A stretch of DNA of 64,000 nucleotides, taken from a virus. Lineage: Duplodnaviria; Heunggongvirae; Uroviricota; Caudoviricetes. Below, piece after piece: positions 4,455 to 30,936 of the stretch. Position numbers and translations under genes: made by a program. The notes beneath the pieces were generated by a model. The model had not been told where the DNA came from, searched no databases, and saw only the letters and a program-made list of their open reading frames with translations. The stretch's first letter is position 1. Each line of letters starts with the position of its first letter. The stretch lies in the IMG/VR virus record IMGVR_UViG_3300033146_004404, positions 1 through 64,000 of that record, one strand, 5' to 3'.

Positions 4455-4459
4455 TACAT

Positions 4460-4928: not shown

Positions 4929-4955
4929 TAAGTATAAAGAAAATAAGGGATAAAC

Positions 4956-5306
4956 ATGGCAGAAATTGAATTGAAAGGTGCTTTCTTAGACTCATTAAAG
5001 AGAAATAACGGACAAATAAAAGCAGCAAGAGCTGCAGCAATTGGTGAAGATACCGAAATTGCTTATCGCAGAAAAGTAGAGGATCTTGAAAGTAAAATTA
5101 AAAAAGTTAAAAGAAGAAGAGATAACATGCTTGATCTTTCACCGGAATCAACAGACAGTCTTATACTTGCAAAAGATTTTAAGGAAGATGAATTTGTAGC
5201 CGAAGATATTCGCCTTTCAAGTGAGCTTCGAAATCTTACAATCTCACTTGAAATTGCAAAAGGTAGATATGATTTTCTGTTCGGTTATACAGAAGGGAAT
5301 AAATAA
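4956..5306 (+). CDS. hypothetical protein
   Basis: Consensus promoter copy 2 plus an AAGGGA RBS. Confidence 0.5.
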   Translation: MAEIELKGAFLDSLKRNNGQIKAARAAAIGEDTEIAYRRKVEDLESKIKKVKRRRDNMLDLSPESTDSLILAKDFKEDEFVAEDIRLSSELRNLTISLEIAKGRYDFLFGYTEGNK

Positions 5307-6157
5307 TGGGAAGCGGAACTTATTCAGCAGACAGATCAGCAACAAGAGCTATGATGTATTCAAACAAGGATAGAGACGAGATCTTCGTCAAAAGATCTCA
5401 ATCCAATTTAATGAGACCTTTTGACGCAGTAAGAGAATGTGTTGATTCTCAAGAACACCCAAATACAATCCCAATAATTATAGCTCTGGACGAGACTGGA
5501 TCGATGGGGCATATCCCTGAAGCATTTGTAAGAGATGAGATGTCAAAAATGATGTCCGGACTTTATAGTGCAGGTCTTGGAGATTCACAAGTTCTCTTTA
5601 TGGGAATTGGTGATATTGAAACTGATAGAGCGCCTCTACAAGTTGGTCAGTTTGAAGCTGACGATGAGCTTATGGATAAGTGGCTTAAAGAGATTTATCT
5701 CGAAGGATGTGGAGGTGGAAATGACGGAGAGAGTTATTCCCTTGCTTGGGCATTTGCTGCAAGAGGAACTAAAATCGATTCCTTTGAAAAGAGAGGAAAA
5801 AAAGGTTATCTATTTACAATAGGTGATGAAAACGATCTTCCTTCAGTTAGCAATGGTGAACTGGCAACTCTTCTTGGAACTACTTCCGGAATTGAGAATT
5901 TGTCTGGTCTTACACCAGCTTCTACGTTACTTCAGGAAGCAAGTGAAAAGTATAACGTTTTTCACATCCATACAAAGGAAACAAGAAATGGTTCAAAAAC
6001 AAAAATTCAGGATAGCTGGAAACAGAATCTTGGAGAGAACGTTCTATTTGTAGATTCATACAAGGAAATCGCAAACCTGATAGCTGAAAAAGTTAATCAG
6101 TTTGAGAAAACTGAGCCAGTAGATGAGCCAGTAGTAAGTGAAATACAATTTCTTTGA
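5306..6157 (+). CDS. von Willebrand factor A (vWA) domain protein
   Basis: MIDAS-like motif 'IALDETGSMG' (DxTGS). Confidence 0.55.
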   Translation: MGSGTYSADRSATRAMMYSNKDRDEIFVKRSQSNLMRPFDAVRECVDSQEHPNTIPIIIALDETGSMGHIPEAFVRDEMSKMMSGLYSAGLGDSQVLFMGIGDIETDRAPLQVGQFEADDELMDKWLKEIYLEGCGGGNDGESYSLAWAFAARGTKIDSFEKRGKKGYLFTIGDENDLPSVSNGELATLLGTTSGIENLSGLTPASTLLQEASEKYNVFHIHTKETRNGSKTKIQDSWKQNLGENVLFVDSYKEIANLIAEKVNQFEKTEPVDEPVVSEIQFL

Positions 6158-15734: not shown

Positions 15735-16115
15735 ATGGATTTTACAAAAATGTCAGTAGAAGAGATTGAAGATGTTATTTCAGGTGCAAAGTCAGCACTC
15801 GTTGACGCAAAAGCAGAAGTAAAACTCTTAAAAGCAGAAGAGAAGAAAGATCGACATGATCTTTTTAAAGCTTCACTTCAGGTAGGCGATAAAGTAACGT
15901 TTCTCTATGGTTCAAAAAATGAAACCAAAGAAGGAACAATTGTAAGAGTTTCTGATAAGACAGTTACTGTCGGGTCAGATGCCTTCTCAAAAGGTTCTGG
16001 ATATGTTCGTTTTGATCGCTTTATTGAGATAGTAGAAACTGCAGAAGTAGAAGTAGAAGCAGAAGTAGAAGCAGAAGCAGAAGCAGAAGCAGAAGCAGAA
16101 GCAGAAGCAGTATAA
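15735..16115 (+). CDS. hypothetical protein with C-terminal (EA)n tail
   Basis: Ends 'EVEVEAEVEAEAEAEAEAEAEAEAV', encoded by GAAGCA/GAAGTA repeats. Confidence 0.5.
   Translation: MDFTKMSVEEIEDVISGAKSALVDAKAEVKLLKAEEKKDRHDLFKASLQVGDKVTFLYGSKNETKEGTIVRVSDKTVTVGSDAFSKGSGYVRFDRFIEIVETAEVEVEAEVEAEAEAEAEAEAEAV
16040..16110 (+). repeat. GAAGCA/GAAGTA hexanucleotide tandem repeat encoding an (EA/EV)n tail
   Basis: gcagaagtagaagtagaagcagaagtagaagcagaagcagaagcagaagcagaagcagaagcag. Confidence 0.8.
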
Positions 16116-16281: not shown

Positions 16282-16779
16282 ATGAGAGTAAAGACATTTA
16301 TTTTTTTTCTGTTTTTTAGTATTTCAGTGATTGCAGCAAAAGACTTTCGTTTGATAATAATCGAAAATTGTATAAAACATGAAGTACCTTACGTTGTAGG
16401 GTTCACTGTGGCCATGACTGAATCAGATATTAGAATGGACATAGAAGAAGAACTAAATCACAATGGAACATATGACATAGGGATATTTCAATTAAATAGT
16501 TATTACATCGGCTGGTTTGAAGAGAAGTATTGGAAAGAGCTTGAAAGCTTTAATCCGTACAATCCAGAACATAATATTGAAATGGGAATAATGTATTTAT
16601 CAGACTTGAGAAAGAGGTTTGAATCATGGGAATTGGCTATTCGTGCTTATAACGTAGGGCCAACAACTGTTTGGAATAACAGAGAAGCTGGGTCTTATTA
16701 TTATGGGAAATATTTGAAGAATGTTAAGAAAGTTGACATAAAAAGAATAATATGCTATAATTATAGTATAAGGAGATAG
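16282..16779 (+). CDS. secreted lytic transglycosylase / lysozyme-like protein
   Basis: N-terminal signal-like 'MRVKTFIFFLFFSISVIAA'; 'MTESDIRMD...GTYDIGIFQLNS' resembles the SLT catalytic Glu-Ser ... GLMQ region. Confidence 0.4.
   Translation: MRVKTFIFFLFFSISVIAAKDFRLIIIENCIKHEVPYVVGFTVAMTESDIRMDIEEELNHNGTYDIGIFQLNSYYIGWFEEKYWKELESFNPYNPEHNIEMGIMYLSDLRKRFESWELAIRAYNVGPTTVWNNREAGSYYYGKYLKNVKKVDIKRIICYNYSIRR
16743..16771 (+). promoter_or_regulatory. consensus early promoter copy 7
   Basis: TTGACAtaaaaagaataatatgcTATAAT, embedded in the 3' coding end of 16282-16779. Confidence 0.65.
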
Positions 16780-16780: not shown

Positions 16781-16990
16781 ATGATATTTTTAATGTGGAG
16801 ATTATATATTGCTTATAATTCTGTAAAGCGTCAGGGTTACAAAATGGTAAATAGTAAGCAAATTAGAGAGAAGATTTCACTGGCAATGAATCCTTACTTT
16901 GGTATTTTAGCACAGGACTTTTATAAAAGCTCAATTTACTTCAGTTTTGCAATTGAATTATCAATGCTCTGGATGACGTTTTTTGTTTGA
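16781..16990 (+). CDS. small membrane protein
   Basis: Hydrophobic ORF downstream of promoter copy 7. Confidence 0.35.
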   Translation: MIFLMWRLYIAYNSVKRQGYKMVNSKQIREKISLAMNPYFGILAQDFYKSSIYFSFAIELSMLWMTFFV

Positions 16991-17015
16991 CGAAAAAAGA
17001 ATAATGTGGTATAAT
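16987..17015 (+). promoter_or_regulatory. consensus early promoter copy 8 (TTGACG variant)
   Basis: TTGACGaaaaaagaataatgtggTATAAT; precedes the cca head gene. Confidence 0.65.
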
Positions 17016-17035
17016 TAAGTATAAGGAGGCAAAAG

Positions 17036-17779
17036 ATGAGTTTTGAAAAAGCAAAAAGAATCGCACAGATTCTACAAGATAACGGATTCAAAGCTGTCTT
17101 TGCTGGCGGTGCTGTTCGGGATATGGTTCTTGGCGTCGAGCCACATGATTTCGATGTGGCAACTTCAGCAAGACCTGAAGATGTTAAAAGAATTTTTATC
17201 AACTCTAGTTTTGTAGGCGAAAGTTTTGGTGTATCACTTGTTGAAGGCATTGAAGTCGCATCATTTAGAATTGATAAAAGTCAGGTTGATGGTAGAAAAC
17301 CAAACAGTATTGAATTTGCTTCAATGGAAGAGGATTCAAAACGCAGAGACCTGACAATCAATGCTCTGTTCTGGGATCCGATTAGTGAAGAATTCTTTGA
17401 CTTTGTTGGTGGAATGAAAGACATCGAAGAAAAAATAATAAGATTTGTTGGTGATCCAATTAAAAGAATAGAAGAAGATAACTTGAGAATAATGAGAGCT
17501 ATCAGATTTGCTCATAAGTTGAACTTTACTCTTAGCAAGAGTACTACTCTTGCGATTGTTAATAATGCTGAAAAAGTAAAGAGTCTGTCAGGTGATAGAA
17601 TTCTTGAAGAACTAAAGAAGGGTATTGTCTTAGATAAACCTTCTAAGTTTATTTCTCTCTTGTTTTCACTTGGTATTTTGAGACATATTCTTCCTGAAAT
17701 AACTGATCTTTCAGGTTGCGAACAACATATAAAATGGCACCCAGAAGGTGCAACAGCTCAAAAGATTATTTGTGACTAA
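17036..17779 (+). CDS. cca: tRNA nucleotidyltransferase (CCA-adding enzyme), N-terminal head/neck fragment
   Basis: 'GGAVRDMVLGVEPHDFDVAT' class-II nucleotidyltransferase signature and 'RRDLTINAL'. Ends '...WHPEG' followed by a short tail, then stop. Confidence 0.75.
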   Translation: MSFEKAKRIAQILQDNGFKAVFAGGAVRDMVLGVEPHDFDVATSARPEDVKRIFINSSFVGESFGVSLVEGIEVASFRIDKSQVDGRKPNSIEFASMEEDSKRRDLTINALFWDPISEEFFDFVGGMKDIEEKIIRFVGDPIKRIEEDNLRIMRAIRFAHKLNFTLSKSTTLAIVNNAEKVKSLSGDRILEELKKGIVLDKPSKFISLLFSLGILRHILPEITDLSGCEQHIKWHPEGATAQKIICD

Positions 17780-17840
17780 ATATCTGCAAAACAAAAAGTT
17801 GGCGTTGGAAAAATGCTTAACTTTTTTAACGGAGGACTGA

Positions 17841-18512
17841 GTGAAACTAGGAGAAAAAATTCCTTTAGATCCAAAAAATAAAGATCATTACGATAAAACA
17901 AAATATAAAATAACTCCAGGTGACGTTTTTGTTCATACAATGAAGGTTTTGGATAACATCGAATCAAAAGATTGGCGTGTTAGACTTGCTGCTTTATTTC
18001 ACGACATTGGCAAACCTGCAACTGCTGTTGATAAAGGTGAAGGTCGAATTTCAAACAAAGGTCATGATAAAGAAGGCGCAAAGATGGTTTTTGAAATTGG
18101 TAAAAGATTGTCTATGTCAAATGAAAACATTGCCTTAATTTCAAATCTAGTTAAGGATCATATGAACTTTAAAGAAGTTAAGAATATGAAAAGATCAACT
18201 CTTAGACGTTTTCTTTCTAAACCTCATATTGTTGAACTAATCGAACTTTCCAAAGCTGATAGTCTTGGTACTGATTTTGAGCACGATATGTCATTCATTG
18301 ACTTTGCAAAAAATCAGTTGAAAAATTTTGACGATTTGAATGAACCTGTTATGCCAGATCCTTTTGTTGATGGTCATGATTTGATTGCTATGGGCTTCAA
18401 GCCTAGTCCAAAATTTAAAGTTATGTTGGATAAAGTTATGGATTTGCAATTGGAAAATAAAATCAACAGTAAAGAAGAAGGAATCGATTTCATCGTAAAA
18501 AAATTTATTTGA
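17841..18512 (+). CDS. cca: CCA-adding enzyme C-terminal HD-domain fragment
   Basis: GTG start with GGAGGA RBS; 'PGDVFVHT' and 'LFHDIGKP' HD motifs. Continues the HPEG|DVxxHT motif that is split from the upstream ORF. Confidence 0.7.
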   Translation: MKLGEKIPLDPKNKDHYDKTKYKITPGDVFVHTMKVLDNIESKDWRVRLAALFHDIGKPATAVDKGEGRISNKGHDKEGAKMVFEIGKRLSMSNENIALISNLVKDHMNFKEVKNMKRSTLRRFLSKPHIVELIELSKADSLGTDFEHDMSFIDFAKNQLKNFDDLNEPVMPDPFVDGHDLIAMGFKPSPKFKVMLDKVMDLQLENKINSKEEGIDFIVKKFI

Positions 18513-18537
18513 CAAAAAAAGAAGAATATGTTATAAT
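18509..18537 (+). promoter_or_regulatory. consensus early promoter copy 9
   Basis: TTGACAaaaaaagaagaatatgtTATAAT; precedes 18574. Confidence 0.7.
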
Positions 18538-18573
18538 TAAGTATAAGAAAAGTAAAAAGGAGAATGTTTTGAA

Positions 18574-18798
18574 ATGATAATAAATCTTATTGTTTTTATT
18601 GTATTCTTATTTTTTGCCAAGTTTGTTATTTTTAAAGCTTACTCTGCTTTCATGAGGCTGAGCATAAAAGATCCAGCTTGGCAATTAAAAGAAGAAGAGA
18701 AAATGGCAAAGATGGCGAAGAAAGTGGATTTAGAGAAGGGCGTAGAAAACAAAGTTTTCTTAAATAAAGTAAAAAAAGTTTTTAGGCTTTTAAAATAA
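18574..18798 (+). CDS. small membrane protein (possible NfeD-like partner of SPFH protein)
   Basis: N-terminal TM helix and a K-rich tail; immediately upstream of the SPFH-like gene. Confidence 0.35.
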   Translation: MIINLIVFIVFLFFAKFVIFKAYSAFMRLSIKDPAWQLKEEEKMAKMAKKVDLEKGVENKVFLNKVKKVFRLLK

Positions 18799-18894: not shown

Positions 18895-19983
18895 ATGTCA
18901 GTAAGAAATGATCCTGGAACGTATGGCCAGATGTTTGGCAATATAACAGAATATAAAATTTCTGATATGAATTACTTTAGCACATCTGATCTTGATGGTG
19001 GTGATGGTGAAGCGGCAGCTCCAATTAAAGTAAGATTTAATGATGGTGGTACTGCGGACATTTCTGGTTCTATAAAGTTTAAGCTGTCACGAAAGACAGA
19101 AAACCAGATAGCGCTACACGAAGATTTCAAAGGTTTTGATGCGGTTCAATCAGATCTTGTAAGACAGGTTTTAACAGAATCACTTATGCAGTCTGCAACG
19201 TTAATGAAGGCTGAGGAGAGTTATTCTACACGAAGAAGTGAATTTACAACACTTGCCGAAATGCAGATTAAAAACGGAATTTATGAAACAGTTTCAGAAG
19301 AGTCAATACAGAAGACTGCTGAAGGAAAAGAGTTTATCGTTCAGGAAGTTAAGGTTAAACTTGACGAAGAAGGTAATCCAATCATAAGAAAAATTTCACC
19401 TTTTAAAAGATATGAAATTGAAGTTCTACAGTTTGTAATTAAAGATATTGACTTTGATTCAACTATTGACAATCTCATAGCGAAGAAGAAAGAAGCAGAG
19501 CAGTTAAAAGTTGTAGGTCAGGCAAATGCTGAAAAAGCAAAACAGGACGCTATAACTGCTGAAGAAACTGGCAAGGCAAGAATTGCTACAGCCACAGCTG
19601 ACGCTGAAGTTAAAAAAGCAACAGCTGTAACACAAGCTCGACAGCTTAAAGAAGTTGCTGAATTGATGGCTACACAGAAATTAGAAGTTGCTAAACTTGA
19701 CGAGCAGAGAGCAAATGCAGAAGCAAACGCTTTACTTGCCAAGAAAATGGCAGATGCTAAAGCAGCAACTTTACTTGTAAAGGCTGGACTTACACCAACA
19801 CAAAGAGCGCAGTTTGAAAAAGATACTGCAATTGGAGTAGCTAAAGCATTGTCAGGAACTCAGTTCCCACAGATAATGAACTTTGGCGTTGATTCAGGAG
19901 TTTCTAGTCCAATGGAAGCAATCGGCTATAATCAAATGTTTGATCTTGTAACAAAGATGAAAGAAACTAAAGCTACTAAATGA
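18895..19983 (+). CDS. SPFH/band-7 (prohibitin-like) domain protein
   Basis: N-terminal globular region followed by a long Ala/Lys/Glu-rich coiled coil, as in stomatin/flotillin-family proteins. Terminator at 19986-20016. Confidence 0.4.
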   Translation: MSVRNDPGTYGQMFGNITEYKISDMNYFSTSDLDGGDGEAAAPIKVRFNDGGTADISGSIKFKLSRKTENQIALHEDFKGFDAVQSDLVRQVLTESLMQSATLMKAEESYSTRRSEFTTLAEMQIKNGIYETVSEESIQKTAEGKEFIVQEVKVKLDEEGNPIIRKISPFKRYEIEVLQFVIKDIDFDSTIDNLIAKKKEAEQLKVVGQANAEKAKQDAITAEETGKARIATATADAEVKKATAVTQARQLKEVAELMATQKLEVAKLDEQRANAEANALLAKKMADAKAATLLVKAGLTPTQRAQFEKDTAIGVAKALSGTQFPQIMNFGVDSGVSSPMEAIGYNQMFDLVTKMKETKATK

Positions 19984-23043: not shown

Positions 23044-23049
23044 TAATTT

Positions 23050-23118
23050 GCCGGATTAACTCAAGGAAGAGTGTCAGAATTGAACTGAAAGTCGTGGGTT
23101 CGATTCCCACATCCGGTA
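23050..23118 (+). tRNA. tRNA, anticodon probably UUG (Gln)
   Basis: Acceptor gccggat/atccggt, D-stem actc/gagt, T-arm gtggg-ttcgatt-cccac. The anticodon loop has A33 and a 27:43 mismatch. Confidence 0.5.
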
Positions 23119-23163
23119 TAGACCGTTTGACACTAACAGCAATCAAATGAAGAAAAAACTGCA

Positions 23164-23199
23164 AATTTTAAGGTGTGGGTTCGATTCCCACTACGATTG
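23164..23199 (+). other. tRNA-like minihelix (acceptor stem plus T-arm only)
   Basis: aatttta-ag-gtggg-ttcgatt-cccac-tacgatt-g, with no D or anticodon arm. Confidence 0.35.
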
Positions 23200-23266
23200 G
23201 TCATCGTATGGTGTAATGGTAGCATTAATCATTAACGTGTCGAGACTAAAAAGAAAGGGGAGAAAA

Positions 23267-24127
23267 TTGTTTTATGTAAACGAACAAAAGAAAAGGAGTC
23301 TTATAAAATCTCTTCCTAGTCTTAATGAAACTACTTTAGTCAATTTTTTTGACGAAATAGATTTCAGCCTACTAGGCGAAACAAAAACTCGTGATGTTTT
23401 TGATCACATCTATTCAAAAACTGAAAAGAGAATTATTTTATTTCTTAATAAAGCGAAGGTTGAAAGTTCAAATACTTCTTCTAAAAATGGAAATAAAATT
23501 ACCATAAACAATCAAAGGTTTGATGAAGTGTTTATGTCTCATCTAGCTGCAGGAATTTCTGCAGAAAAATTTGAAGAACTCTTTCCTTATATACGCAGAA
23601 TAAATGGGGCTTTTTACTATTTTGATAAAAATGGAAATTCATTAAATAATTACTATTTTGATATGTTTGAGTATAATGCAGTAGAATCAGGTATTGCCGC
23701 CGATATGGAAGCAGTGATAGAGGCCAAAGAAAAAGATTATGGAGATAAGAAAATGGGGAAAATGACTAACACTGTAAAGAATGTTGTAGAGATGAATAAA
23801 TCAGCTGGTAAGCAGGCAGCTCTTGTAAAAATTGGAAAGACTGCAAACCATGCAGTGATTGAAGTTCTACAGAAGAAAGTCATTCCAAAGAAATACAAGA
23901 AAATTGTAGAGAGTCCTTTTTTCGGTCTGGCTATAGCTAATGTTTCAGCAGTTGCAATGAAAGAATATGCTTCCGAAAGAAGTGATGGAGCAAAAGTAGA
24001 AGCAGTCGCTGACGCAATGCTTTTAAGTTCAATGCTTGAAATTACTGATATGATTGATCTTAATAAAATCATAACAGATGTGATCGAATCAGTTGATCTT
24101 AAGTCGCTCGGGTTCAGTGAAGATTAA
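23267..24127 (+). CDS. hypothetical protein
   Basis: The six-frame ORF starting at 23147 overlaps tRNA-like sequence. A TTG start at 23267 after AAAGGGGAG is more plausible. Confidence 0.4.
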   Translation: MFYVNEQKKRSLIKSLPSLNETTLVNFFDEIDFSLLGETKTRDVFDHIYSKTEKRIILFLNKAKVESSNTSSKNGNKITINNQRFDEVFMSHLAAGISAEKFEELFPYIRRINGAFYYFDKNGNSLNNYYFDMFEYNAVESGIAADMEAVIEAKEKDYGDKKMGKMTNTVKNVVEMNKSAGKQAALVKIGKTANHAVIEVLQKKVIPKKYKKIVESPFFGLAIANVSAVAMKEYASERSDGAKVEAVADAMLLSSMLEITDMIDLNKIITDVIESVDLKSLGFSED

Positions 24128-24159
24128 GAAAATTAGCCCGAAGGGCTAATAAATAATAT

Positions 24160-24234
24160 CAGTGTGTGACGGGAAAGGCTTATCCGTGCTCCCCTGGAAG
24201 GAGGAAAATGTGGGTTCGAGTCCCACCTCACTGA
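24160..24234 (+). tRNA. tRNA, anticodon probably UGG (Pro)
   Basis: Acceptor cagtgtg/ctcactg, D-stem acgg/ccgt, anticodon loop cctggaa, T-arm gtggg-ttcgagt-cccac. Confidence 0.45.
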
Positions 24235-24414
24235 CTTTGGTAAATAGTGATAATAGAGAAATATCTCTTGGCACTGGAGAAAGTAATCTGGACGTAAGTC
24301 TTAATTCAATTCCGGAAAAAGAATTAGGATAAGAAGCGATGAAGAAATCGTAAAGGATCATACCCGAGTATAGGGAGACTGCAGGTTCGAATCCTGCGTT
24401 GCCAATATTTTAAT

Positions 24415-24443
24415 TTGACAAAAAAAGAATAATATGGTATAAT
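24415..24443 (+). promoter_or_regulatory. consensus early promoter copy 13
   Basis: Identical core; tRNA-Asp starts about 22 nt after the -10. Confidence 0.75.
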
Positions 24444-24464
24444 TAAGTATAAAGAAATATAAAT

Positions 24465-24538
24465 GCCTTAATAGTTTAATTGGCTAAAGCACTGGTCTGT
24501 CAAATCAGAGAGTCCGAGTTCAATCCTCGGTTAGGGCG
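24465..24538 (+). tRNA. tRNA-Asp (GUC)
   Basis: Full cloverleaf: acceptor gccttaa/ttagggc, anticodon loop ctGTCaa, T-arm ccgag-ttcaatc-ctcgg. Directly downstream of promoter copy 13. Confidence 0.8.
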
Positions 24539-24563
24539 TAAACAAAATTTTATGGAGTGTTAG

Positions 24564-25013
24564 TTGATAACATTAACAGAACAGAATAAAAAAGAGGCAG
24601 CAAGAGTTGTAAGTAATTTGATTCATGAATATCAGGATGTTAAAGATTATTTTATGGATTATAATGACGAGATGGAGAGCATCGAAGGCTTGATTTTTGA
24701 ATATATTGAAAATCATAAATGGCTTCTACAAGAGAAGATTCCTTTTACTGTTACAGTAAATCAGGCTTTTCACTCTTGGTATGAAAATGTATTCTTGTAT
24801 CAGACCTCAGCAATGAGAGCGACGGGAATAAGAAGAGCAGTAATTCATCAGTCGAACAAGGAATTGTTTGACTTAGTCTCAAAAGAATATTATAGTATGA
24901 CAGATAAAGATGATATCTTCTGCTATGCTATAGCTTGTCAAAGAGTCATAAAGAAATATTCTACAAAATGGATATATAAGTTTCTAGCGAAAATTTATAT
25001 GAAAAAAGCATAA
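24564..25013 (+). CDS. hypothetical protein
   Basis: ORF (TTG or a later ATG start). Confidence 0.4.
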   Translation: MITLTEQNKKEAARVVSNLIHEYQDVKDYFMDYNDEMESIEGLIFEYIENHKWLLQEKIPFTVTVNQAFHSWYENVFLYQTSAMRATGIRRAVIHQSNKELFDLVSKEYYSMTDKDDIFCYAIACQRVIKKYSTKWIYKFLAKIYMKKA

Positions 25014-25071
25014 GAGCATTTTACAGTAGTTTTACTGTTTGGAAAGAGTGTTTTAAAGTAAAATGATTTTT

Positions 25072-25143
25072 GGTCTCATAGTATAATGGTTAGTACATAT
25101 GGTTTTCATCCATAAAATCGGAGTTCGATTCTCCGTGAGACTG
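25072..25143 (+). tRNA. tRNA-Glu (UUC)
   Basis: Acceptor ggtctca/tgagact, anticodon stem tatgg/ccata with loop ttTTCat, T-arm cggag-ttcgatt-ctccg. Confidence 0.75.
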
Positions 25144-25156
25144 TAAAGGAATAATA

Positions 25157-25690
25157 ATGAAACACAGAAATGTTTTAAAGTATTCTGAAAGACCATTTAA
25201 GGACATTTCTGAGATGAACGTGAAGCTCCTAGAAAATATCAATAATTCAGTTGAACCTGGAGATGAGATATACTTTTTAGGTGACATAGGGCACTCTCAC
25301 AAAGAAGTGAAGCTCTTTTTTGACAATTTAAAGAGTGGAATTGGTTTTCATTGGATTATTGGAAATCACGATAAAAAGTTATTGACAGCAGCACCAAAGA
25401 AAAGAGTAAGTAGCATTTCATATATTAAAGAGATTTATGTGGAAAAAAAACCTATAATTCTATGTCATTATCCAATGCTTACATGGGATAAGAGTCATTA
25501 TAATTCATGGCATTTATTTGGACATCATCATAAAAACGGACATGATAAAGAAGGTCTTGAAAGTAGACTTACTGGAAAAATGTTTAATGTTAATCTTGAG
25601 TTCAATGATTACCAGATGTATAGTGAAAAAGACATTATAAGAATAATGATGGCAAAAGAAAACAATTGGGATTTTATAAAAGAACGTTAA
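25157..25690 (+). CDS. metallophosphoesterase (calcineurin-like)
   Basis: 'IYFLGDIGHSH' (GDxxxR-like) and 'IIGNHDKKL' (GNHD/E) motifs. Confidence 0.7.
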   Translation: MKHRNVLKYSERPFKDISEMNVKLLENINNSVEPGDEIYFLGDIGHSHKEVKLFFDNLKSGIGFHWIIGNHDKKLLTAAPKKRVSSISYIKEIYVEKKPIILCHYPMLTWDKSHYNSWHLFGHHHKNGHDKEGLESRLTGKMFNVNLEFNDYQMYSEKDIIRIMMAKENNWDFIKER

Positions 25691-25697
25691 AAAAAAC

Positions 25698-25726
25698 TTG
25701 ACAAAAAAAGAATAATATGGTATAAT
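25698..25726 (+). promoter_or_regulatory. consensus early promoter copy 14
   Basis: Identical core; precedes the small ORF and the Thr-Phe-Ala-Met-Asn tRNA array. Confidence 0.75.
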
Positions 25727-25744
25727 TAAGTATAAGGAGAAAAG

Positions 25745-25924
25745 ATGAAATCTTTAACCGTTAAGGAAATGATTGAGAAATTACAAGAGTTGCCGATGGA
25801 TGAAGAAGTCGTTCTTTTTGGAGAGGGAAAAATCTTCCCTTGCCTTGTGATCAATAGGCTTCAATTTGGAGAAGGACATCATATTGAAATAGCTGGTGGT
25901 TGGAACCCTTTAGAAGAAAATTAA
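25745..25924 (+). CDS. small hypothetical protein (59 aa)
   Basis: AAGGAGAAAAG RBS then ATG, downstream of promoter copy 14; precedes the tRNA array. Confidence 0.35.
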   Translation: MKSLTVKEMIEKLQELPMDEEVVLFGEGKIFPCLVINRLQFGEGHHIEIAGGWNPLEEN

Positions 25925-25928
25925 TATT

Positions 25929-26001
25929 CGCATCCATAGCACAACGGATTAGTGCAGGAGTCTTGTAAACTTCTGATCTGGGTTCGATTCCCAGTGGATG
26001 C
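25929..26001 (+). tRNA. tRNA-Thr (UGU)
   Basis: Acceptor gcatcca/tggatgc, D-stem gcac/gtgc, anticodon loop ctTGTaa, T-arm ctggg-ttcgatt-cccag. Confidence 0.8.
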
Positions 26002-26004
26002 TTT

Positions 26005-26063
26005 TAGGCACTTACAGCAATCAAAACTATAATTAGAAAGAATGTAAAAAGCAAAGTGTCTAG
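26005..26063 (+). ncRNA. conserved inter-tRNA hairpin element (copy)
   Basis: tAGGCACTtACAGCAATCAAA...AGTGTCTAg; one copy of a recurring element. Confidence 0.4.
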
Positions 26064-26070
26064 TTTTTAT

Positions 26071-26143
26071 GCCGTTTTAGCTCAGTAGGTAGAGCGTCTG
26101 TTTGAAGAGCAGAGCGTCTCCGGTTCAATTCCGGGAGGCGGCA
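26071..26143 (+). tRNA. tRNA-Phe (GAA)
   Basis: Acceptor gccgttt/aggcggc (with G-U pairs), D-arm tagctcagtaggtagagc, anticodon loop ttGAAga, T-arm tccgg-ttcaatt-ccggg. Confidence 0.75.
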
Positions 26144-26146
26144 AAT

Positions 26147-26217
26147 GGGGTTATAATATAACGGAATTATGGAAGACCTGCAATCTTCATATCGGGGTTC
26201 AACTCCCCGTAGCTCCA
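26147..26217 (+). tRNA. tRNA-Ala (UGC)
   Basis: Acceptor ggggtta/tagctcc with a G3:U70 wobble (the Ala identity element), anticodon loop ccTGCaa, T-arm cgggg-ttcaact-ccccg. Confidence 0.7.
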
Positions 26218-26224
26218 TAAACGT

Positions 26225-26296
26225 AGCGGGGTTGAGGAATTGGAACCTCATAAGGCTCATAACCCTATCATGCAAGTTCGAGTCTTGCCTCCGCCT
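26225..26296 (+). tRNA. tRNA with CAU anticodon (Met or Ile2)
   Basis: D-stem gagg/cctc, anticodon loop ctCATaa, T-arm gcaag-ttcgagt-cttgc. A1:C72 mismatch. Confidence 0.5.
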
Positions 26297-26298
26297 TT

Positions 26299-26358
26299 TA
26301 GACATTAACAGCAATCAAAAAAAACCAAACTGTTAATTTGAAAATAAAAAATGTCTAG
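26299..26358 (+). ncRNA. conserved inter-tRNA hairpin element (copy)
   Basis: TAGACATTAACAGCAATCAAA...ATGTCTAG. Confidence 0.4.
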
Positions 26359-26460
26359 TTTTACTGAAAGTTAGTGTCGGGACGAGAGAGCACAGTAGTA
26401 TGAAAATACTTCCAAGCCTTCTCCCAGACTTTTTCTGTAGTCTTAAAAGAACAGTAACAT

Positions 26461-26534
26461 TTCCTTGAAGCTTATCTGGTAAAGCGCCAAATCGTTAATT
26501 TGGAGTCTTCTTGGTTCGAGTCCAAGCAGGGGAG
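26461..26534 (+). tRNA. tRNA, anticodon probably GUU (Asn)
   Basis: Acceptor ttccttg/cagggga (all paired including G-U), D-stem gctt/aagc, anticodon stem ccaaa/tttgg with loop tcGTTaa, T-arm cttgg-ttcgagt-ccaag. Confidence 0.5.
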
Positions 26535-26674
26535 AAAGCTGAATTTTGAGTAAGGTCGCTACGAAGAACAACTCTAAAACAAAAACAAAAAGGAGAAGCT
26601 ATGAAATTCACATAGGTAAAACCGCCTTAACTGCTATATATAAATGAATAATTTATATATAGGAGAATGAAAAG

Positions 26675-27037
26675 ATGAATGAAGTGATAATGAAAAATAC
26701 TGAAATTAATTATGTAGTAAGAGATTCGATAAGAGAGTTAAAAAAGGATTTAAAGCTTTTATCTGTTAAGATTAGAGAATTTAAAAGAATTAGGGATACC
26801 TCTAAGAACATTGATGAAGTAGCCAGCTGTATGTCAGAGCTTGTAAATATAAGAGAATCTTATAGACTATGTCACATTCTTTACTGTTTAATAAGAGGTA
26901 GAAAATATCTGGAAGTTGAAAACAAGGTAGCTTATGGGAATAAGGGTTCTCTTTCAGCTTTGAAATGCAAATGCTTACAATATAATGGACTTGATCTTGA
27001 TAGTTGCACTGTCAAGCAACTAGAGGGGTTGAGATAA
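26675..27037 (+). CDS. hypothetical protein
   Basis: ORF with RBS (taggagaatgaaaag) then ATG. Confidence 0.45.
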   Translation: MNEVIMKNTEINYVVRDSIRELKKDLKLLSVKIREFKRIRDTSKNIDEVASCMSELVNIRESYRLCHILYCLIRGRKYLEVENKVAYGNKGSLSALKCKCLQYNGLDLDSCTVKQLEGLR

Positions 27038-27039
27038 AG

Positions 27040-27408
27040 ATGGTAAAACAAGTTATTATAGCGAGGACAGATTTAGATATGTCTTCTGGGAGGATGCCTT
27101 CACAGGTCGCTCACGCATCCATTGCAGTTTTTCTCGATATGGGAAAATGGGATGGAGATAATTTTACGTTGAAAAATGTCGATAAGGATATTCAGTATTG
27201 GATGAAAAAATCATTCACTAAGGTAGTTTTAAAAGTCCATAGTGAAGAAGAGTTGGTTAAACTTCAAGAGTTAGCTAAGGGATTAAAACTCCCGAGCGCA
27301 ATGATTGAAGACGATGTAATGGGTAGAGTTGAGAAAACTGCGCTCGCAATCGGGCCTGCTCTTGTTGAGGATATAGATGCTATAACAGGCAAACTATTCT
27401 TGTTTTAA
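27040..27408 (+). CDS. peptidyl-tRNA hydrolase, PTH2 family
   Basis: 'KQVIIARTDLDMSSGRMPSQVAHASIAVF' matches the PTH2 core (VxVVRTDLxMxxGKxAAQxxHA). Start chosen at ATG 27040 immediately after the upstream stop. Terminator at 27413-27432. Confidence 0.7.
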   Translation: MVKQVIIARTDLDMSSGRMPSQVAHASIAVFLDMGKWDGDNFTLKNVDKDIQYWMKKSFTKVVLKVHSEEELVKLQELAKGLKLPSAMIEDDVMGRVEKTALAIGPALVEDIDAITGKLFLF

Positions 27409-27412
27409 ATTT

Positions 27413-27432
27413 TTGGCCCTTCGGGGCCTTTT
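27413..27432 (+). terminator. rho-independent terminator
   Basis: ggccc-ttcg-gggcc-tttt after the PTH2 gene. Confidence 0.65.
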
Positions 27433-27434
27433 AT

Positions 27435-27507
27435 GTGTCTGTCGTATAATGGCTATTACGATGCCTTCTAAAAGCACCAGATCAGGGTTCGAATCCCTGC
27501 AGACACG
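27435..27507 (+). tRNA. tRNA with CUA anticodon (candidate amber suppressor)
   Basis: Perfect acceptor gtgtctg/cagacac, T-arm caggg-ttcgaat-ccctg, anticodon loop ttCTAaa with U33 and A37. The anticodon stem has terminal A-C/C-A mismatches. Confidence 0.4.
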
Positions 27508-27544
27508 ATAGGGCAATGTTGTTCACCCTATAATATTATTTCTT

Positions 27545-27615
27545 GGCACAGTGAAATTGGTTTTCAAGCTAGGCTCATATCTTAGTTTCCGTGGGTTCGA
27601 TTCCCACCTGTGCTT
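27545..27615 (+). tRNA. tRNA with CAU anticodon
   Basis: Acceptor ggcacag/ctgtgct, anticodon stem ctagg/cttag with loop ctCATat, T-arm gtggg-ttcgatt-cccac. Atypical D-arm. Confidence 0.5.
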
Positions 27616-27617
27616 TT

Positions 27618-27689
27618 GCTGGGAGGGCGTTGGAGTCCCAGATCAGGTTCATAACCTGTTTCTTCGTCGGTTCGATTCCGTCCTCAGCT
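27618..27689 (+). tRNA. tRNA with CAU anticodon
   Basis: Acceptor gctggga/cctcagc, anticodon stem cagg/cctg with loop ttCATaa. T-arm carries a U-U mismatch. Confidence 0.45.
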
Positions 27690-27975
27690 ATAATGAGAAA
27701 ATCAAGTAACGAGAGAATTAACAGTGTAGCTTGGCTGTTCGACAGACCAAAATTCTCTCAGTTTTTTAAGAGGTATTTATGAAAGACACAAAAGTAACTA
27801 TGAGTAACTATGAATATTGATGAGTATAACAAATTAGTCAATATAATTGAAAAGACTTTAATATTTAAAGAGAATTTAAAGACTAAGCTTAAGGAAGCCA
27901 TTGTCTATAAAGAAAAAGAGATAAAATCAATGACTTTCTTTGAACTTATGAAAAGGTATCTAGCTAAATAAATCC

Positions 27976-28004
27976 TTGACAAAAAAAGAATAATATGGTA
28001 TAAT
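27976..28004 (+). promoter_or_regulatory. consensus early promoter copy 15
   Basis: Identical core; precedes 28023 and the Arg/Glu tRNAs. Confidence 0.75.
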
Positions 28005-28022
28005 TAAGTACAAGGAAGGGAA

Positions 28023-28220
28023 ATGATGGATTATGTGCAAGTAAGAGTTAAAAAAGAAGGTGCTGAAATTTATCAAATGGCTTGGGTCGAAAAGTTAAAA
28101 AGTGTCGTTGAGGGGTGTAAAATAACTATTGAGGATAATGGAGTTTTTTGGGAAGTGCTTAATTTATATACAGGAAAGCAAGTTCCAAAAGAAGATCTCT
28201 TAAAGGCTTTGGAATATTAA
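28023..28220 (+). CDS. small hypothetical protein
   Basis: Promoter copy 15 plus GGAAGGG RBS. Confidence 0.4.
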   Translation: MMDYVQVRVKKEGAEIYQMAWVEKLKSVVEGCKITIEDNGVFWEVLNLYTGKQVPKEDLLKALEY

Positions 28221-28228
28221 TAAAACAT

Positions 28229-28301
28229 GTACCGTTAGCGTATTGGATGACGCAACAGGCTTCTAACCTGTTAAAACTGGGTTCGATTCCCAGACGGTGC
28301 T
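28229..28301 (+). tRNA. tRNA-Arg (UCU)
   Basis: Acceptor gtaccgt/acggtgc, D-stem gcgt/acgc, anticodon stem acagg/cctgt with loop ctTCTaa, T-arm ctggg-ttcgatt-cccag. Confidence 0.8.
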
Positions 28302-28308
28302 TTTACTT

Positions 28309-28381
28309 GTCCCTGTCGTCTAATGGTTAGGACGCAAGTTTCTCAAACTTGTAATCTTAGGTTCAATTCCTAGTAGGGGTG
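28309..28381 (+). tRNA. tRNA, anticodon possibly CUC (Glu)
   Basis: D-stem cgtc/gacg, anticodon stem caagt/acttg with loop ttCTCaa, T-arm ttagg-ttcaatt-cctag. G-U-rich acceptor; boundaries approximate. Confidence 0.4.
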
Positions 28382-28404
28382 TCAATAAAACAAGGGGTTT
28401 AAAA

Positions 28405-28833
28405 ATGATCTTGAAAGAGTTAAAGAAACAGAAAATAATACTTAAGAAAACAAACCCAGTTAGATCTGGTGTTTTAGCGTCTCTTATAGCAGAGACTGAA
28501 AAAACAGCTAAAGTAGCTAAGAGAGAAGCTCTTCAGGAAGATGTTGAAAAAGCAGCAGCAATGCTTACAAAACAGTTACAGAAAACTGTTGATGAAGTTA
28601 AAGTTGGAGAAGTAGTTGAAGGCTATAAACTCGAGATTGCTGAGCTGAAAGATTTTATTCCAGAAACAGTAAATAGAGAGCTTACTACAGAAATGATCGA
28701 AGAAGTCTTAAAGGAATATCCTGAGCCTTCTATGAAGATTATGGGAAAGGTTATCAGTGAATTGAAGAAAAGATATGGTAATAAGATTGATATGGCGATT
28801 GCTTCGAAAGAAGTGAAAGCTCTATTGAGTTAA
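28405..28833 (+). CDS. YqeY / GatB C-terminal-domain-like protein
   Basis: C-terminal '...EEVLKEYPEPSMKIMGKVISELKKRYGNKIDMAIASKEVKALL' resembles the GatB_Yqey motif (E..P...MGKVMG.VM.K..G.ADG..V...V...L). Confidence 0.5.
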   Translation: MILKELKKQKIILKKTNPVRSGVLASLIAETEKTAKVAKREALQEDVEKAAAMLTKQLQKTVDEVKVGEVVEGYKLEIAELKDFIPETVNRELTTEMIEEVLKEYPEPSMKIMGKVISELKKRYGNKIDMAIASKEVKALLS

Positions 28834-28839
28834 AAATAT

Positions 28840-28913
28840 GCGCCTATAGCTCTAATGGTTAGAGCAGCTCCCTCATAAGGAGACGGTTCTTGGTTCGAGT
28901 CCAGGTGGGCGCA
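28840..28913 (+). tRNA. tRNA with CAU anticodon (Met/fMet/Ile2)
   Basis: Acceptor gcgccta/tgggcgc, D-arm tagctctaatggttagagc, anticodon loop ctCATaa, T-arm cttgg-ttcgagt-ccagg. Confidence 0.7.
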
Positions 28914-28986
28914 TTATCAAGTCAAGAGGTTTCACGAGTGAAAAAATATTTATACGGTTCCTAGCGATAGGAGGAAATATATTATA

Positions 28987-29523
28987 ATGAAATATTACTT
29001 AATGAAAAACAATGACAATCAGGATTTAAGAAAATTTGGCGATTGGTGGGAGCTGATCGCCTTTTTAGACTATAGATGTATTAAGTGCTTTGTTCACAAC
29101 CCTAATGATTCTTACGGAGGTTCTTACGTTTCTAAAAGAATAGGGTTGAAAGAATATGAGCATGTTTATCATGACTATGATGTTTATACTGTCTTTGATG
29201 GATTGATGAGAATTATCAACAAAGTAGAACTACAAGATGGGCTGAAGAAATTTAACCCTTCCTACGGAAGACAGGTAAGAGGAAGAAAACAAAAATATTT
29301 TAATTGGATGAGAAGCAAACGAGGATATCGTTATGCTAATCCAAAAAGAAGAGGAAAACGCTTCAGAATAGAAATGGATGAGGCGAGAAAAATGTTCCCA
29401 AATAAAGGAAGGTTAAATACTTTAGAAGTTGTTACCTCTTGGGGTGACGATTGGGGAACTATAGCTATAAGTAGAAGTTGGAAAGATCAAAGTAAAAAGA
29501 GGAAACAGTGGTTATCCTCATAA
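28987..29523 (+). CDS. hypothetical basic protein
   Basis: ORF with AGGAGGAAAT RBS; Arg/Lys-rich C-terminal half. Confidence 0.45.
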   Translation: MKYYLMKNNDNQDLRKFGDWWELIAFLDYRCIKCFVHNPNDSYGGSYVSKRIGLKEYEHVYHDYDVYTVFDGLMRIINKVELQDGLKKFNPSYGRQVRGRKQKYFNWMRSKRGYRYANPKRRGKRFRIEMDEARKMFPNKGRLNTLEVVTSWGDDWGTIAISRSWKDQSKKRKQWLSS

Positions 29524-29542
29524 TACTTTAAGGGGATAGTAT

Positions 29543-29640
29543 GTCAGTTTTTTTAATTATTTCAATGGCTGTTTTTGTCTGTGCTGTGATAATATATCAG
29601 TTTTTTTAATTATTTCAATGGCTGTTTTTGTCTATGCTAT
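29543..29640 (+). repeat. ~48-bp tandem duplication spanning the start of 29618
   Basis: tcagtttttttaattatttcaatggctgtttttgtctRtgct repeated twice, with two mismatches. Confidence 0.75.
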
Positions 29641-29830
29641 GATTGGGTTTATTACTTTCAAAATATTAAATGAGCATTTATTCATTTTTGATATAGACGA
29701 CTTTGACTGTTTTGTATCTGCGTTTTGGCCGGTTGGATGGTTTGGAATAGCTGCATATTATGCAGGAACAGCTATAGTTGATTTTGTAGAAGATAGGAAA
29801 AAAAATAAAAGAATAAAGTTTGCCCCTTAG
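29618..29830 (+). CDS. small membrane protein
   Basis: Two predicted TM helices; its start lies inside the second copy of a ~48-bp tandem duplication. Confidence 0.4.
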   Translation: MAVFVYAMIGFITFKILNEHLFIFDIDDFDCFVSAFWPVGWFGIAAYYAGTAIVDFVEDRKKNKRIKFAP

Positions 29831-29891
29831 TGTAATGGCTGCACAAAACACTCTGAATGTTTTAGTAGAGGTCCGAATCCTCTAGGGGTTT
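29821..29891 (+). tRNA. tRNA, anticodon probably CUG (Gln)
   Basis: Anticodon stem aaaca/tgttt with loop ctCTGaa, T-arm agagg-tccgaat-cctct, acceptor tgcccct/aggggtt (first pair mismatched). Overlaps the stop of the upstream ORF. Confidence 0.5.
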
Positions 29892-29933
29892 ACTGTAATC
29901 CATTAAGTCTTACATAAACAAAAAGGAATTAAG

Positions 29934-30887
29934 ATGCCACAAGCTGTAATTGTTTCAGGTAGAAGTAATAGACCTTTATCAAAAGATATTCTATTCAACT
30001 TAGGATTAAAGGGAAAAGAAATTCCCACTATTATAATGGATTTTCCCAACAAAGAAATATTTGTTAAGTACAAAGAAAGTATAAGAGGAAAAGACGTATT
30101 CATAATAAATACATTTAATGGTGATCCTAATAAGGATCTAGTAGAAACTTTAATTTTAGCTGATACAGCATTTACGTCATCAGCTAGAAGGATAACGGTT
30201 GTTCTTCCAATCATTTACGGTTCTAGGCAAGATAGAAAAAGTTCGCTTAGAACTCCTGTCACTATATCAATGATGGCTAAAATCTTCAAGTCAGTTGGTA
30301 TAGATCGCATCGTAACGGTTTCGTTACATGCACCACAATCAGCAGCAGCATTTTTTGCGGCTGGTTTACGCTTTGATAATATCTCTGGAAGTGGAATTTT
30401 TCTTTCAGATATGAAAGAGCTTATGAAGACAGAGAATTTTGTCGTCGTATCTCCTGACGCCGGTGGGCTTTCTAGGGCAAGATACTATGCTAAAGTATTA
30501 GATACTGACATAGCATTTGCTGATAAGAGACGAGGAGCTGACAGAAAATCTGAAATCATGAATCTTGTAGGTGACGTTAAAGGTAGAAATGTTTTTATTG
30601 TTGATGATATGATCGATGGCGGTGGAACAATTATTGGTGTAGCAAATGCCTTGAAAGCAGGTGGAGCAGAGAATGTTTATTGTCTTGCTACACATATGGT
30701 GCTTTCAGGTGATGCTGCTGAAAAGCTGAATAACTCAGTTATTAAAACAATTTATGGCAGTAACTCTATCATAAAAAACAGTCTTCCAAGCAAATTCAAA
30801 ATCAAAAGTCTTGGGCCAACACTTTCTAATGTAATAGAGAAAATTCATAATGATGAAAGCGTTGGTGATGCTTGCGAAGAGTTATAA
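29934..30887 (+). CDS. prs: ribose-phosphate pyrophosphokinase (PRPP synthetase)
   Basis: 'RGKDVFIINTFNGDPNKDLVETLILADTAFTSSARRITVVLPIIYGSRQDRK' and 'VVVSPDAGGLSRA' match Prs signature regions. Confidence 0.8.
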   Translation: MPQAVIVSGRSNRPLSKDILFNLGLKGKEIPTIIMDFPNKEIFVKYKESIRGKDVFIINTFNGDPNKDLVETLILADTAFTSSARRITVVLPIIYGSRQDRKSSLRTPVTISMMAKIFKSVGIDRIVTVSLHAPQSAAAFFAAGLRFDNISGSGIFLSDMKELMKTENFVVVSPDAGGLSRARYYAKVLDTDIAFADKRRGADRKSEIMNLVGDVKGRNVFIVDDMIDGGGTIIGVANALKAGGAENVYCLATHMVLSGDAAEKLNNSVIKTIYGSNSIIKNSLPSKFKIKSLGPTLSNVIEKIHNDESVGDACEEL

Positions 30888-30890
30888 TTT

Positions 30891-30919: not shown

Positions 30920-30936
30920 AGCATAAGGAGGAAAAA

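Follow-up and report, generated by a model that had tools for sequence, protein, structure and literature searches.

Few natural cases have been described of an essential enzyme gene that was broken by a mobile endonuclease and yet keeps its function without splicing. In phage Aeh1, the polypeptides NrdA-a and NrdA-b carry mobE-derived tails that are essential for activity, and the study of that nrdA locus proposed that splitting of this kind 'may represent a general mechanism' (PMC3045599). An intein-less SbcD-like gene is fractured by a Vsr-like open reading frame (ORF), with extra peptides of 25 and 9 amino acids (aa) at the break (PMC2677866). The present work concerns a 64,000-nucleotide (nt) stretch of DNA from a Caudoviricetes virus (positions 1 to 64,000 of IMG/VR record IMGVR_UViG_3300033146_004404; hereafter, the window), in which the gene for a class II CCA-adding enzyme (cca) is broken into two ORFs inside a conserved motif. 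No report of a cca gene fractured by an endonuclease cassette was found in literature searches. Comparison with other phage loci indicates that the break was very probably made by such a cassette, which has decayed in the window, and that the two ORFs would supply the two polypeptides of one enzyme.

A predicted class II CCA-adding enzyme encoded by two ORFs

ORF1 and ORF2 together encode a predicted class II CCA-adding/HD enzyme broken inside HPEG/GDVxxHT (Table 1). They are adjacent, lie on the same strand and are jointly collinear with a gene that is normally single. ORF1 ends with ...KWHPEG-ATAQKIICD and a TAA codon, the last residues of the protein being KWHPEGATAQKIICD; the ORF2 protein starts with VKLGEKIPLDPKNKDHYDKTKYKITPGDVFVHT and reads VKLGEKIPLDPKNKDHYDKTKYKITP-GDVFVHT...LFHDIGK. 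The product of ORF1 matches the PolyA_pol head (PF01743, 2.8e-31), with its GGxVRD, DxD and RRD motifs, and the RNA-binding neck (PolyA_pol_RNAbd, PF12627, 4.1e-13), while that of ORF2 matches HD (PF01966, 7.1e-10). When the two were joined in a virtual fusion, the best PDB matches were CCA-adding enzymes (7e-43); thousands of single-chain homologues of ~440 aa were matched as well, the majority with the contiguous HPEGDVxxHT that the initial annotation of this DNA had held to be canonical. The catalytic residues of the head domain are kept in the window (G23, G24, R27, D28, D37, D39, R102, R103, D104, E146, D147 and R150), as are the HD metal ligands H...HD...H...D (H273, H295, D296, H316, H348 and D381) and the family positions of HDIGK (H295, D296, G298 and K299). 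Of the 68 positions with a conservation of 95% or more among 78 homologues, the two halves have preserved 67 (53 of them on ORF1), and both bear the signature of purifying selection.

The ends of the two ORFs, the GTG at 17841, the GGAGGA ribosome-binding site (RBS) and the HD motif were re-read from the sequence and the ORF translations and are as first described; the codons GGT 17747–17749 and GGT 17919–17921 do lie 172 nt apart, with the ORFs in different frames. Identical proteins were called on a 201,184-base-pair JGI contig, namely P0003 (identical to ORF1) and P0121 (identical to ORF2, with the same start). No nucleotide similarity of the window to 50,697 phage records was found, and scans of IMG/VR with ORF1 alone and with ORF2 alone gave no relatives, whereas an alignment-based scan did. 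In annotation, ORF1 and ORF2 would best be treated as subunits of one tRNA nucleotidyltransferase, rather than as a frameshifted pseudogene.

A Vsr-like endonuclease gene at the same break in other phage loci

Split loci were gathered by scans of IMG/VR, metagenomes and a protein collection. An identical split architecture was found on independent contigs (L011, L013, L151, L132, L163–165, L166 and L167–169), with the halves adjacent and in the same order in all of the split locus types, of which there are at least eight. In L151, L163 (L163–165) and L166, the halves flank an ORF of 270–287 aa, the stop of which overlaps or directly adjoins the start codon of ORF2. Among relatives whose gap contains a complete gene, the gap measures 580–905 nt. 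Remnants of the same endonuclease gene persist in L132 (77 codons) and L167 (42 codons). The 580-nt gap of L013 holds an unrelated Pro-rich ORF, and a terminator-like hairpin directly follows ORF1. In L011 the halves are separated by 41 nt, and this spacer matches the ORF1–endonuclease intergenic region of L163 (common CCTTCTGTAAAGGT and AAGGAG), which implies an independent and precise loss of the endonuclease ORF there.

In the intact endonuclease (L151, L163), a C2H2 zinc finger at the N-terminus is combined with a Vsr-like nuclease core at the C-terminus. Its profile matches the Vsr structures 1VSR/1ODG at 2e-5, and in the alignment D-F-V-V, I-E-F-N-G-D-x-x-H and an invariant D230 are paired with D51, F62, H69 and D97 of Vsr, the equivalents of D51, H69 and D97 being kept and a Glu standing at the F62 position. 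The features by which Vsr-like endonucleases are recognised, that is, a Vsr core, an invariant Glu at the F62 position and a separate N-terminal DNA-binding module (Dassa et al. 2009), are all found in the intact L151 and L163 genes; this assignment does not apply to the remnant in the window. The endonuclease also matches the PHROG 'endonuclease' family (2.9e-5), and its phage homologues are annotated as 'putative VSR endonuclease'; its Pfam matches are weak only. A free-standing endonuclease gene at the break point is the predicted cause of the split, an origin absent from the initial annotation.

Members of the same endonuclease family were also seen beside uninterrupted cca genes, downstream in L092 (2030–3307) and upstream in L138 (1374–1724), which suggests that the family frequents the cca neighbourhood.

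In the window, the spacer between the ORF1 TAA and the ORF2 GTG is 61 nt long and corresponds to the last ~20 codons of the endonuclease gene, the TGA of the remnant being immediately followed by the GTG. It can be matched codon by codon to the corresponding endonuclease ends of L163 (DYLRDKEKTIKKCLDFIKES), L151 (DYRNNKKKVTKECIAFLKRE) and L167 (EFFKNKENAIKKCIDFLESL), each followed by a stop. A stretch of 20 codons was not detected by BLAST and a profile search was needed: when a hidden Markov model of the endonuclease C-terminus was run against 3118 six-frame pieces of the window, the remnant was the sole significant match (E = 0.002; next best, 0.44), an earlier three-sequence profile having given E = 0.029. 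These matches identify the spacer as the putative decayed 3′ end of a Vsr-like endonuclease gene. The Shine–Dalgarno sequence of ORF2 has an equivalent (AGGAG/GAGG) at the same place in L163, L151, L166, L167 and L011.

An A/U-rich hairpin with a T-run (AAAAAGTTGGCGTT-GGAAA-AATGCTTAACTTTTTT, 17793–17826) was noted inside the remnant, just upstream of the ORF2 RBS. Compared with shuffled sequence it had no significance, and a terminator scan did not pick it up; it could still reduce ORF2 expression.

Short peptides conserved on the two sides of the break

The initial annotation took the interruption for an insertion of ~170 nt. The break is real, but it does not contain one non-coding piece. 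In three continuous homologues (P0004, P0005 and P0006), HPEG and GDVF are separated by a 31-aa peptide in frame (for example, ATVEKKGTKLKIPYDPKNPDHNDETKYKFNH; P0006 was not located on any contig), to which the ORF1 tail (ATAQK...) and the ORF2 head (KLGEKIPLDPKNKDHYDKTKYKITP) are both homologous. Since the counterpart of the tail and head is a continuous loop of protein, most of the 170 nt is coding, and of the 169 nt that separate the GGT codons, only ~61–76 nt are truly extra, non-cca DNA. In the comparison of orthologues that had been proposed for the insert, every split locus had tail and head, and the uninterrupted alleles lacking any loop (plain alleles; P0001, P0002, P0007–P0015 and others were examined) had neither.

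Tail and head are conserved at the protein level in at least eight other split loci and at least ten protein clusters. The consensus of the tail among split loci is HPEG-A[TRY]V[QR][KER]I[ILT]Y(I)D-stop, the exception being L167 (ARVRRIIE-stop). The N-terminus of ORF2 is M[KR]LG.KIP.DP.N..H... in five locus types, and in L013 and L151 the start is ~12 residues longer and contains INGRKA.LG. The GTG of ORF2 is the positional homologue of the initial ATG (M[KR]LG...) of P0122, P0123, P0124 and L011, and the stop, RBS and start are conserved across the two-ORF arrangement. In a profile search of 1.84 billion representative proteins, stand-alone ORF2 proteins bearing the head fell into at least ten clusters at 50% identity. 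Over the 34 codons of tail and head, split loci differ from one another by 7–13 synonymous versus 10–14 non-synonymous codon differences. With the two kinds about equally frequent, the stretch is taken to be translated and selected as protein.

The AlphaFold model of the re-fused protein P0004 (predicted local distance difference test score, 95.2) places the equivalent of the tail, TVQE, in a strand (238–241) and the break point in a turn, after D245; the head forms a strand (247–249), a helix (255–258) and a second strand (263–266), and GDVF follows at residue 268. With this strand–turn–strand–helix–strand layout, tail and head could act as an assembly element.

An apparently mobile cassette of tail, stop codon, endonuclease gene and head

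The plain allele P0008 (L170) is 80–90% identical in nucleotide sequence to the C-half of L163 and near-identical to it at both flanks, and its junction reads ...TGG CAT CCA GAA GGT / GAT GTT CTT ACT CAT TCA... without interruption. This near-identity makes the tail–stop–endonuclease–head of L163 a clean insertion of ~965 nt, which brings one extra Gly codon. The proposal of the initial annotation that an ancestral continuous gene was interrupted inside HPEG/GDV is supported.

In a neighbour-joining tree of the cca backbone (cassette removed, 200 bootstraps), the split alleles were polyphyletic and each grouped with an uninterrupted allele: L163 with P0008 (200/200), L011 with P0001/P0002 (200/200), L167 with P0053 (195/200), L151 with P0030 (170/200) and L013 with P0028 (151/200). 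A grouping of all split alleles together was recovered in 0/200 replicates. Given this polyphyly, the tail–stop–endonuclease–head unit behaves as a cassette that is apparently mobile, and the pattern is consistent with movement through homing by the endonuclease. The endonucleases are 46–54% identical and the tail/head peptides up to 71%, values equal to or above the similarity of the host halves (32–61%); for the endonucleases, the figure to set beside theirs is 32–48% in the cca halves that host them.

P0053, the closest uninterrupted relative of L167 (58–60% identity), is labelled at NCBI as belonging to a Nitrosarchaeum metagenome-assembled genome; a viral contig may have been binned into an archaeal genome, or these elements may have a wider host range.

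The junctions of the re-fused genes differ from one another: ATVQEVNSD-I-KIPYD in P0004, ATVEKKG-TKL-KIPYD in P0005/6, SKVRKIFLD-ENDRY-KLGPIEEFD in P0038 and ARVRRI-CIG-LGPFEKLD in P0147. Such continuous genes, with a loop of 31–45 aa left as a scar, appear to have lost the endonuclease and then re-fused in frame, each independently.

Expression and proposed history of the split gene

The promoter listed in Table 1 is predicted to drive ORF1 and ORF2 as one unit. No promoter-like site was found between the halves, and the next consensus promoter (18509–18537) overlaps the last ORF2 codons. Three near-perfect sigma-70 promoters (TTGACA/G-17-TATAAT, extended TG) were in fact seen in this part of the window, at 16733–16761, 16987–17015 and 18509–18537, and a similar AATTAAGTATAAG leader comes after both the second and the third; a promoter cassette seems to be repeated before successive small operons.

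None of the 21 tRNA genes in the window (0/21) encodes the 3′ CCA, so a working CCA enzyme would plausibly be useful to the phage, and selection for one is plausible. This context fits an enzyme that would add C-C-A to tRNA 3′ ends, as distinct from a CC-adding, A-adding or poly(A) polymerase activity. These genes form a cluster at 23049–41579 together with a tmRNA gene (32523–32807, tag DETETYYAQVA). One of the tRNAs has the anticodon CTA (27434–27508) and is a potential amber suppressor, and one call (24160–24235) has an aberrant two-base 'anticodon'.

The following history, with a two-polypeptide enzyme as its outcome, is, taken as a whole, the best explanation of these data and one in which we place considerable confidence. 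A free-standing homing-endonuclease cassette would have invaded an uninterrupted phage cca gene between the HPEG and GDVxxHT codons. It would have comprised, in order, ~9 codons and a stop, ~41 nt with an RBS, the gene for a C2H2 Vsr-like endonuclease of 270–287 aa, a start codon abutting the endonuclease stop, and ~26–39 codons leading in frame into GDV. The cca gene would thereby have been broken into two genes, each with a short new peptide at the break. In the lineage of the window, a later deletion beginning immediately behind the ORF1 stop would have removed the endonuclease gene except for its last ~20 codons, which remain as a 61-nt spacer that would still supply the RBS of ORF2. ORF1 and ORF2 would be co-transcribed from the 16987 promoter and translated separately, ORF2 from GTG 17841, and their products would assemble non-covalently into an active enzyme, in which the strand of the ORF1 tail and the strand–helix–strand of the ORF2 head probably form a small junction sheet that holds the halves. 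Of the two outcomes originally put forward for the break, two polypeptides or an unconventional joining of the halves, the first is the better supported and the second finds no support.

Table 1. Position of the features of the split cca gene in the window
Feature	Position	Strand	Remarks
Sigma-70-type promoter, TTGACG-17-TATAAT with extended TG	16987..17015	+	Upstream of ORF1 and ORF2
ORF1, N-terminal half (head and neck) of class II CCA-adding enzyme	17036..17779	+	247 aa, TAA stop
HPEG codons	17738..17749	+	Upstream flank of the proposed cassette insertion site
C-terminal ORF1 tail, ATAQKIICD (9 codons), predicted to be cassette-borne	17750..17776	+	Absent from plain alleles, conserved in split loci
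Putative endonuclease 3′-end remnant	17778..17840	+	Effectively the whole ORF1–ORF2 spacer; frame 0: KYLQNKKLALEKCLTFLTED, then TGA
Shine–Dalgarno sequence of ORF2, GGAGGA	17831..17836	+	Inside last codons of endonuclease remnant, 4 nt before GTG
ORF2, C-terminal half (HD domain and body/tail region)	17841..18512	+	223 aa, GTG start
N-terminal ORF2 head, fM-KLGEKIPLDPKNKDHYDKTKYKITP (26 codons), predicted to be cassette-borne	17841..17918	+	Conserved in split and re-fused forms
GDVFVHT codons	17919..17939	+	Downstream flank of the proposed insertion site, with first His of HD domain
HDIGK codons	18000..18014	+	Metal-binding motif of HD domain

Points against the proposed history and alternative explanations

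Several points weigh against this history. Statistical support for the remnant is modest (15.3 bits) because it is only ~20 codons long, and much of its weight comes from its position and frame relative to ORF2. The tree was made by neighbour-joining on distant sequences (40–80% identity), and, instead of repeated homing, repeated precise loss or recombination among cca alleles could account for the polyphyly of split alleles. What tail and head do structurally is read from a single-chain model of a re-fused protein, not from a two-chain complex, and it is from conservation that we infer both the assembly of the halves and CCA-adding activity. Finally, a GTG start and a spacing of only 4 nt after GGAGGA may mean low expression of ORF2.

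Among the alternatives, the one that survives best is that the halves do not reassemble but work alone, ORF1 as a nucleotidyltransferase fragment and ORF2 as an HD phosphohydrolase (for instance, one acting in tRNA 3′-end healing). The HD domain is a separate Pfam domain lying wholly on ORF2, and that of the E. coli Cca enzyme reportedly has phosphatase/phosphodiesterase activity of its own; moreover, the terminator-like hairpin after ORF1 and the unrelated ORF between the halves in L013 imply that the halves can be expressed independently. Class II enzymes, however, need the C-terminal body/tail region for tRNA binding; since this region is on ORF2, ORF1 alone would lack the substrate-binding part. 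The constant adjacency and order of the halves in all eight locus types, and the joint conservation of tail and head, which are neighbours in the P0004 model, also count against separate functions. Independently working halves are therefore the weaker proposition; we hold them unlikely, and they would be compatible with assembly.

That the locus is a pseudogene, or an artefact of assembly or sequencing, is highly improbable. The DNA is a metagenome assembly, the ORFs are in different frames and no closely related genome was found, all of which might favour an error. However, correcting an indel cannot remove the extra 61 nt, and no single-base correction restores one ORF, since all three frames contain stops; the sequencing-error or frameshift explanation that the initial annotation had kept in reserve thus fails. 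A pseudogene would not be expected to keep 67 of 68 conserved positions, and the same architecture recurs in at least eight independent locus types and at least ten protein clusters at 40–70% divergence.

Still less credence can be given to synthesis of one polypeptide by recoding, whether by bypassing from GGT 17747 to GGT 17919 (the T4 gene-60-style mechanism to which the initial annotation had likened the locus), by bypassing from GAC 17774 to GAT 17868, or by a +1 frameshift with read-through of TGA. In its favour are the identical GGT codons on the two sides of the break in the window; the GAC-TAA at the end of ORF1 and the in-frame GAT in ORF2, a possible take-off and landing pair; the sequences TAC GAC TAA and TAC GAC CCA that lie 74 nt apart in L011; and a frame 0 that is open from 17733 to TGA 17838. 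Against it, the region to be skipped is conserved at the protein level and the ORF2 start codon and RBS are conserved too. GGT 17747 is followed by GCA and not by a stop, the RNA of 17740–17880 folds no better than shuffled sequence (z = -0.22), and the two flanking Gly codons are unlike each other in L011 (GGG/GGC) and L163 (GGG/GGT). The gap of 169 nt in the window, and of 580–905 nt with a full gene in relatives, compares with ~50 nt expected of a bypass. As to read-through, TGA ends 10 of the 27 long ORFs of the window, and reading TGA or TAG as sense gave no sign of recoding. Hopping from GAC to GAT/GAC was rejected because of the loci with gaps of 580–905 nt and the conserved ORF2 start. 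TAG recoding, raised by the tRNA with the CTA anticodon, was rejected as well; with TAG as sense, only two small ORF pairs merge.

Rejoining of the halves by a splicing element (a group I or II intron, or a split intein) might be suggested by the insertion into a highly conserved active-site motif, which is typical of introns and inteins, and by the occurrence of Vsr-like endonucleases in group I introns and between split-intein halves (PMC2677866). It has a negligible probability: no Rfam intron match was obtained in the window or in six split loci (at 16900–18700, with E up to 10, the only matches were chance-level ones to eukaryotic small nucleolar RNAs and microRNAs); outside the endonuclease ORF only 41–46 nt (5′) and 0 nt (3′) are left, and the 61 nt of non-cca DNA in the window are, as first remarked of the insert, too short for a group I intron; and where a split intein calls for halves of at least ~130 aa together, C/S/A as first residue, a terminal (H)N and C/S/T at +1, the tail (8–10 aa) and head (26–39 aa) are far too short for a HINT fold, the +1 residue is Gly, the last residues are TP, NH, YP or NK with no terminal HN, and the peptides are retained in the re-fused proteins P0004–6, P0038 and P0147.

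Other fractured genes and neighbouring features

A second fracture site of cca was seen in L012 (3367–6062), L024 and L028, in the head domain between ...ATF and DGRRPD, with gaps of 0.9–1.35 kb. The gap of L012 contains, on the opposite strand, a 346-aa ORF with KYG.EN-type repeats, and the halves have Cys-rich extra tails (…THDYSCKNFEPKKR followed by a stop, and MNKTMCNKCKWFEGHCIHPEGECITLES…). In a related phage (L002, JAPOGW010007865.1), the RtcB RNA ligase gene is in two pieces (3901–6098), of 164 aa (3901–4395) and 265 aa (5301–6098), ~900 nt apart and with no Rfam intron there; this phage group may have another fractured tRNA-repair gene besides cca.

Upstream of cca, the window holds a 126-aa ORF (15735–16115) ending in a (Glu-Ala/Glu-Val)n run, EVEAEVEAEAEAEAEAEAEAV, encoded by a GAA/GCA-type repeat, and an SLT-like lytic transglycosylase gene (16282–16779, judged by eye); an SLT gene is likewise found near cca in L002. 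Downstream, a 362-aa ORF (18895–19983, also judged by eye) occupies the position of a gene that in the related contig L001 has a weak Pfam match to Band_7.

Implications and comparison with known systems

A wider proposal, to which we give slightly better than even chances, is that the Vsr-like endonuclease travels as a self-contained cassette that makes the fracture tolerable by bringing a stop, a gene, an RBS, a start and matched adaptor peptides, which would fold into a small sheet and re-staple the enzyme. If this is true, the element can home into the catalytic HPEG/GDV motif of very different cca alleles without an intron or intein, and the adaptors outlast the decay of the endonuclease in one of two forms: a stable two-gene enzyme like that of the window or, via in-frame deletion, a loop of 31–45 aa in a re-fused gene. 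This would be a traceable route, driven by a mobile element, to gene fission and to the insertion of loops into domains. The cca family displays the whole life cycle: intact cassettes, at least three independent decay products (the window included) and several scar loops. It also offers a natural split site and candidate adaptor peptides in class II CCA-adding enzymes, which would be useful for protein engineering. For annotation, the lesson is that homing endonucleases can leave fossils in phage genes, in the form of short unexplained spacers or of odd insertions within conserved motifs.

The closest parallel is nrdA-a/mobE/nrdA-b of Aeh1 (Friedrich et al. 2007; Crona et al. 2011, PMC3045599), in which, as in cca, a free-standing homing endonuclease splits a phage enzyme gene in a conserved part that matters for catalysis, the endonuclease gene overlaps or abuts the downstream half, the tails derive from the insertion, and there is no RNA or protein splicing. 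The differences lie in the target (cca instead of nrdA), in the endonuclease (Vsr-like with a C2H2 finger instead of the HNH mobE), in its decay to ~20 codons in the window, and in the breadth of the cca family, where numerous loci cover every stage of decay, re-fused forms occur and a phylogenetic signal of travelling tails is seen; moreover, the function of the split Aeh1 enzyme was shown biochemically, whereas the cca split is known here from sequence. The SbcD-like locus shares with cca a Vsr-like free-standing endonuclease between the halves of an enzyme gene, mostly in phage or metagenome DNA, the lack of an intein and the arrival of gene-control elements with the endonuclease (PMC2677866); the window differs from it in having lost the endonuclease. 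In T4, gene 39/mobA/gene 60 (with its 50-nt bypass) likewise shows the disruption of a phage enzyme gene by a mobile cassette with an endonuclease, and a short untranslated gap beside a Gly codon, but cca lacks the bypass signals and its 'gap' is translated, forming the ends of two ORFs. The CC-adding and A-adding enzyme pairs of Aquifex, Deinococcus and some cyanobacteria are two complete paralogues with divided specificity; CCA synthesis there, as proposed for the cca split, involves two polypeptides of the class II nucleotidyltransferase family, but these are not N- and C-terminal fragments of one enzyme. The cca split is one more case of the rare, already described fracture of a gene by a homing endonuclease without splicing, and it goes beyond the known cases in its full series of endonuclease decay, its re-fusion scars and the evidence that the tails move with the endonuclease.

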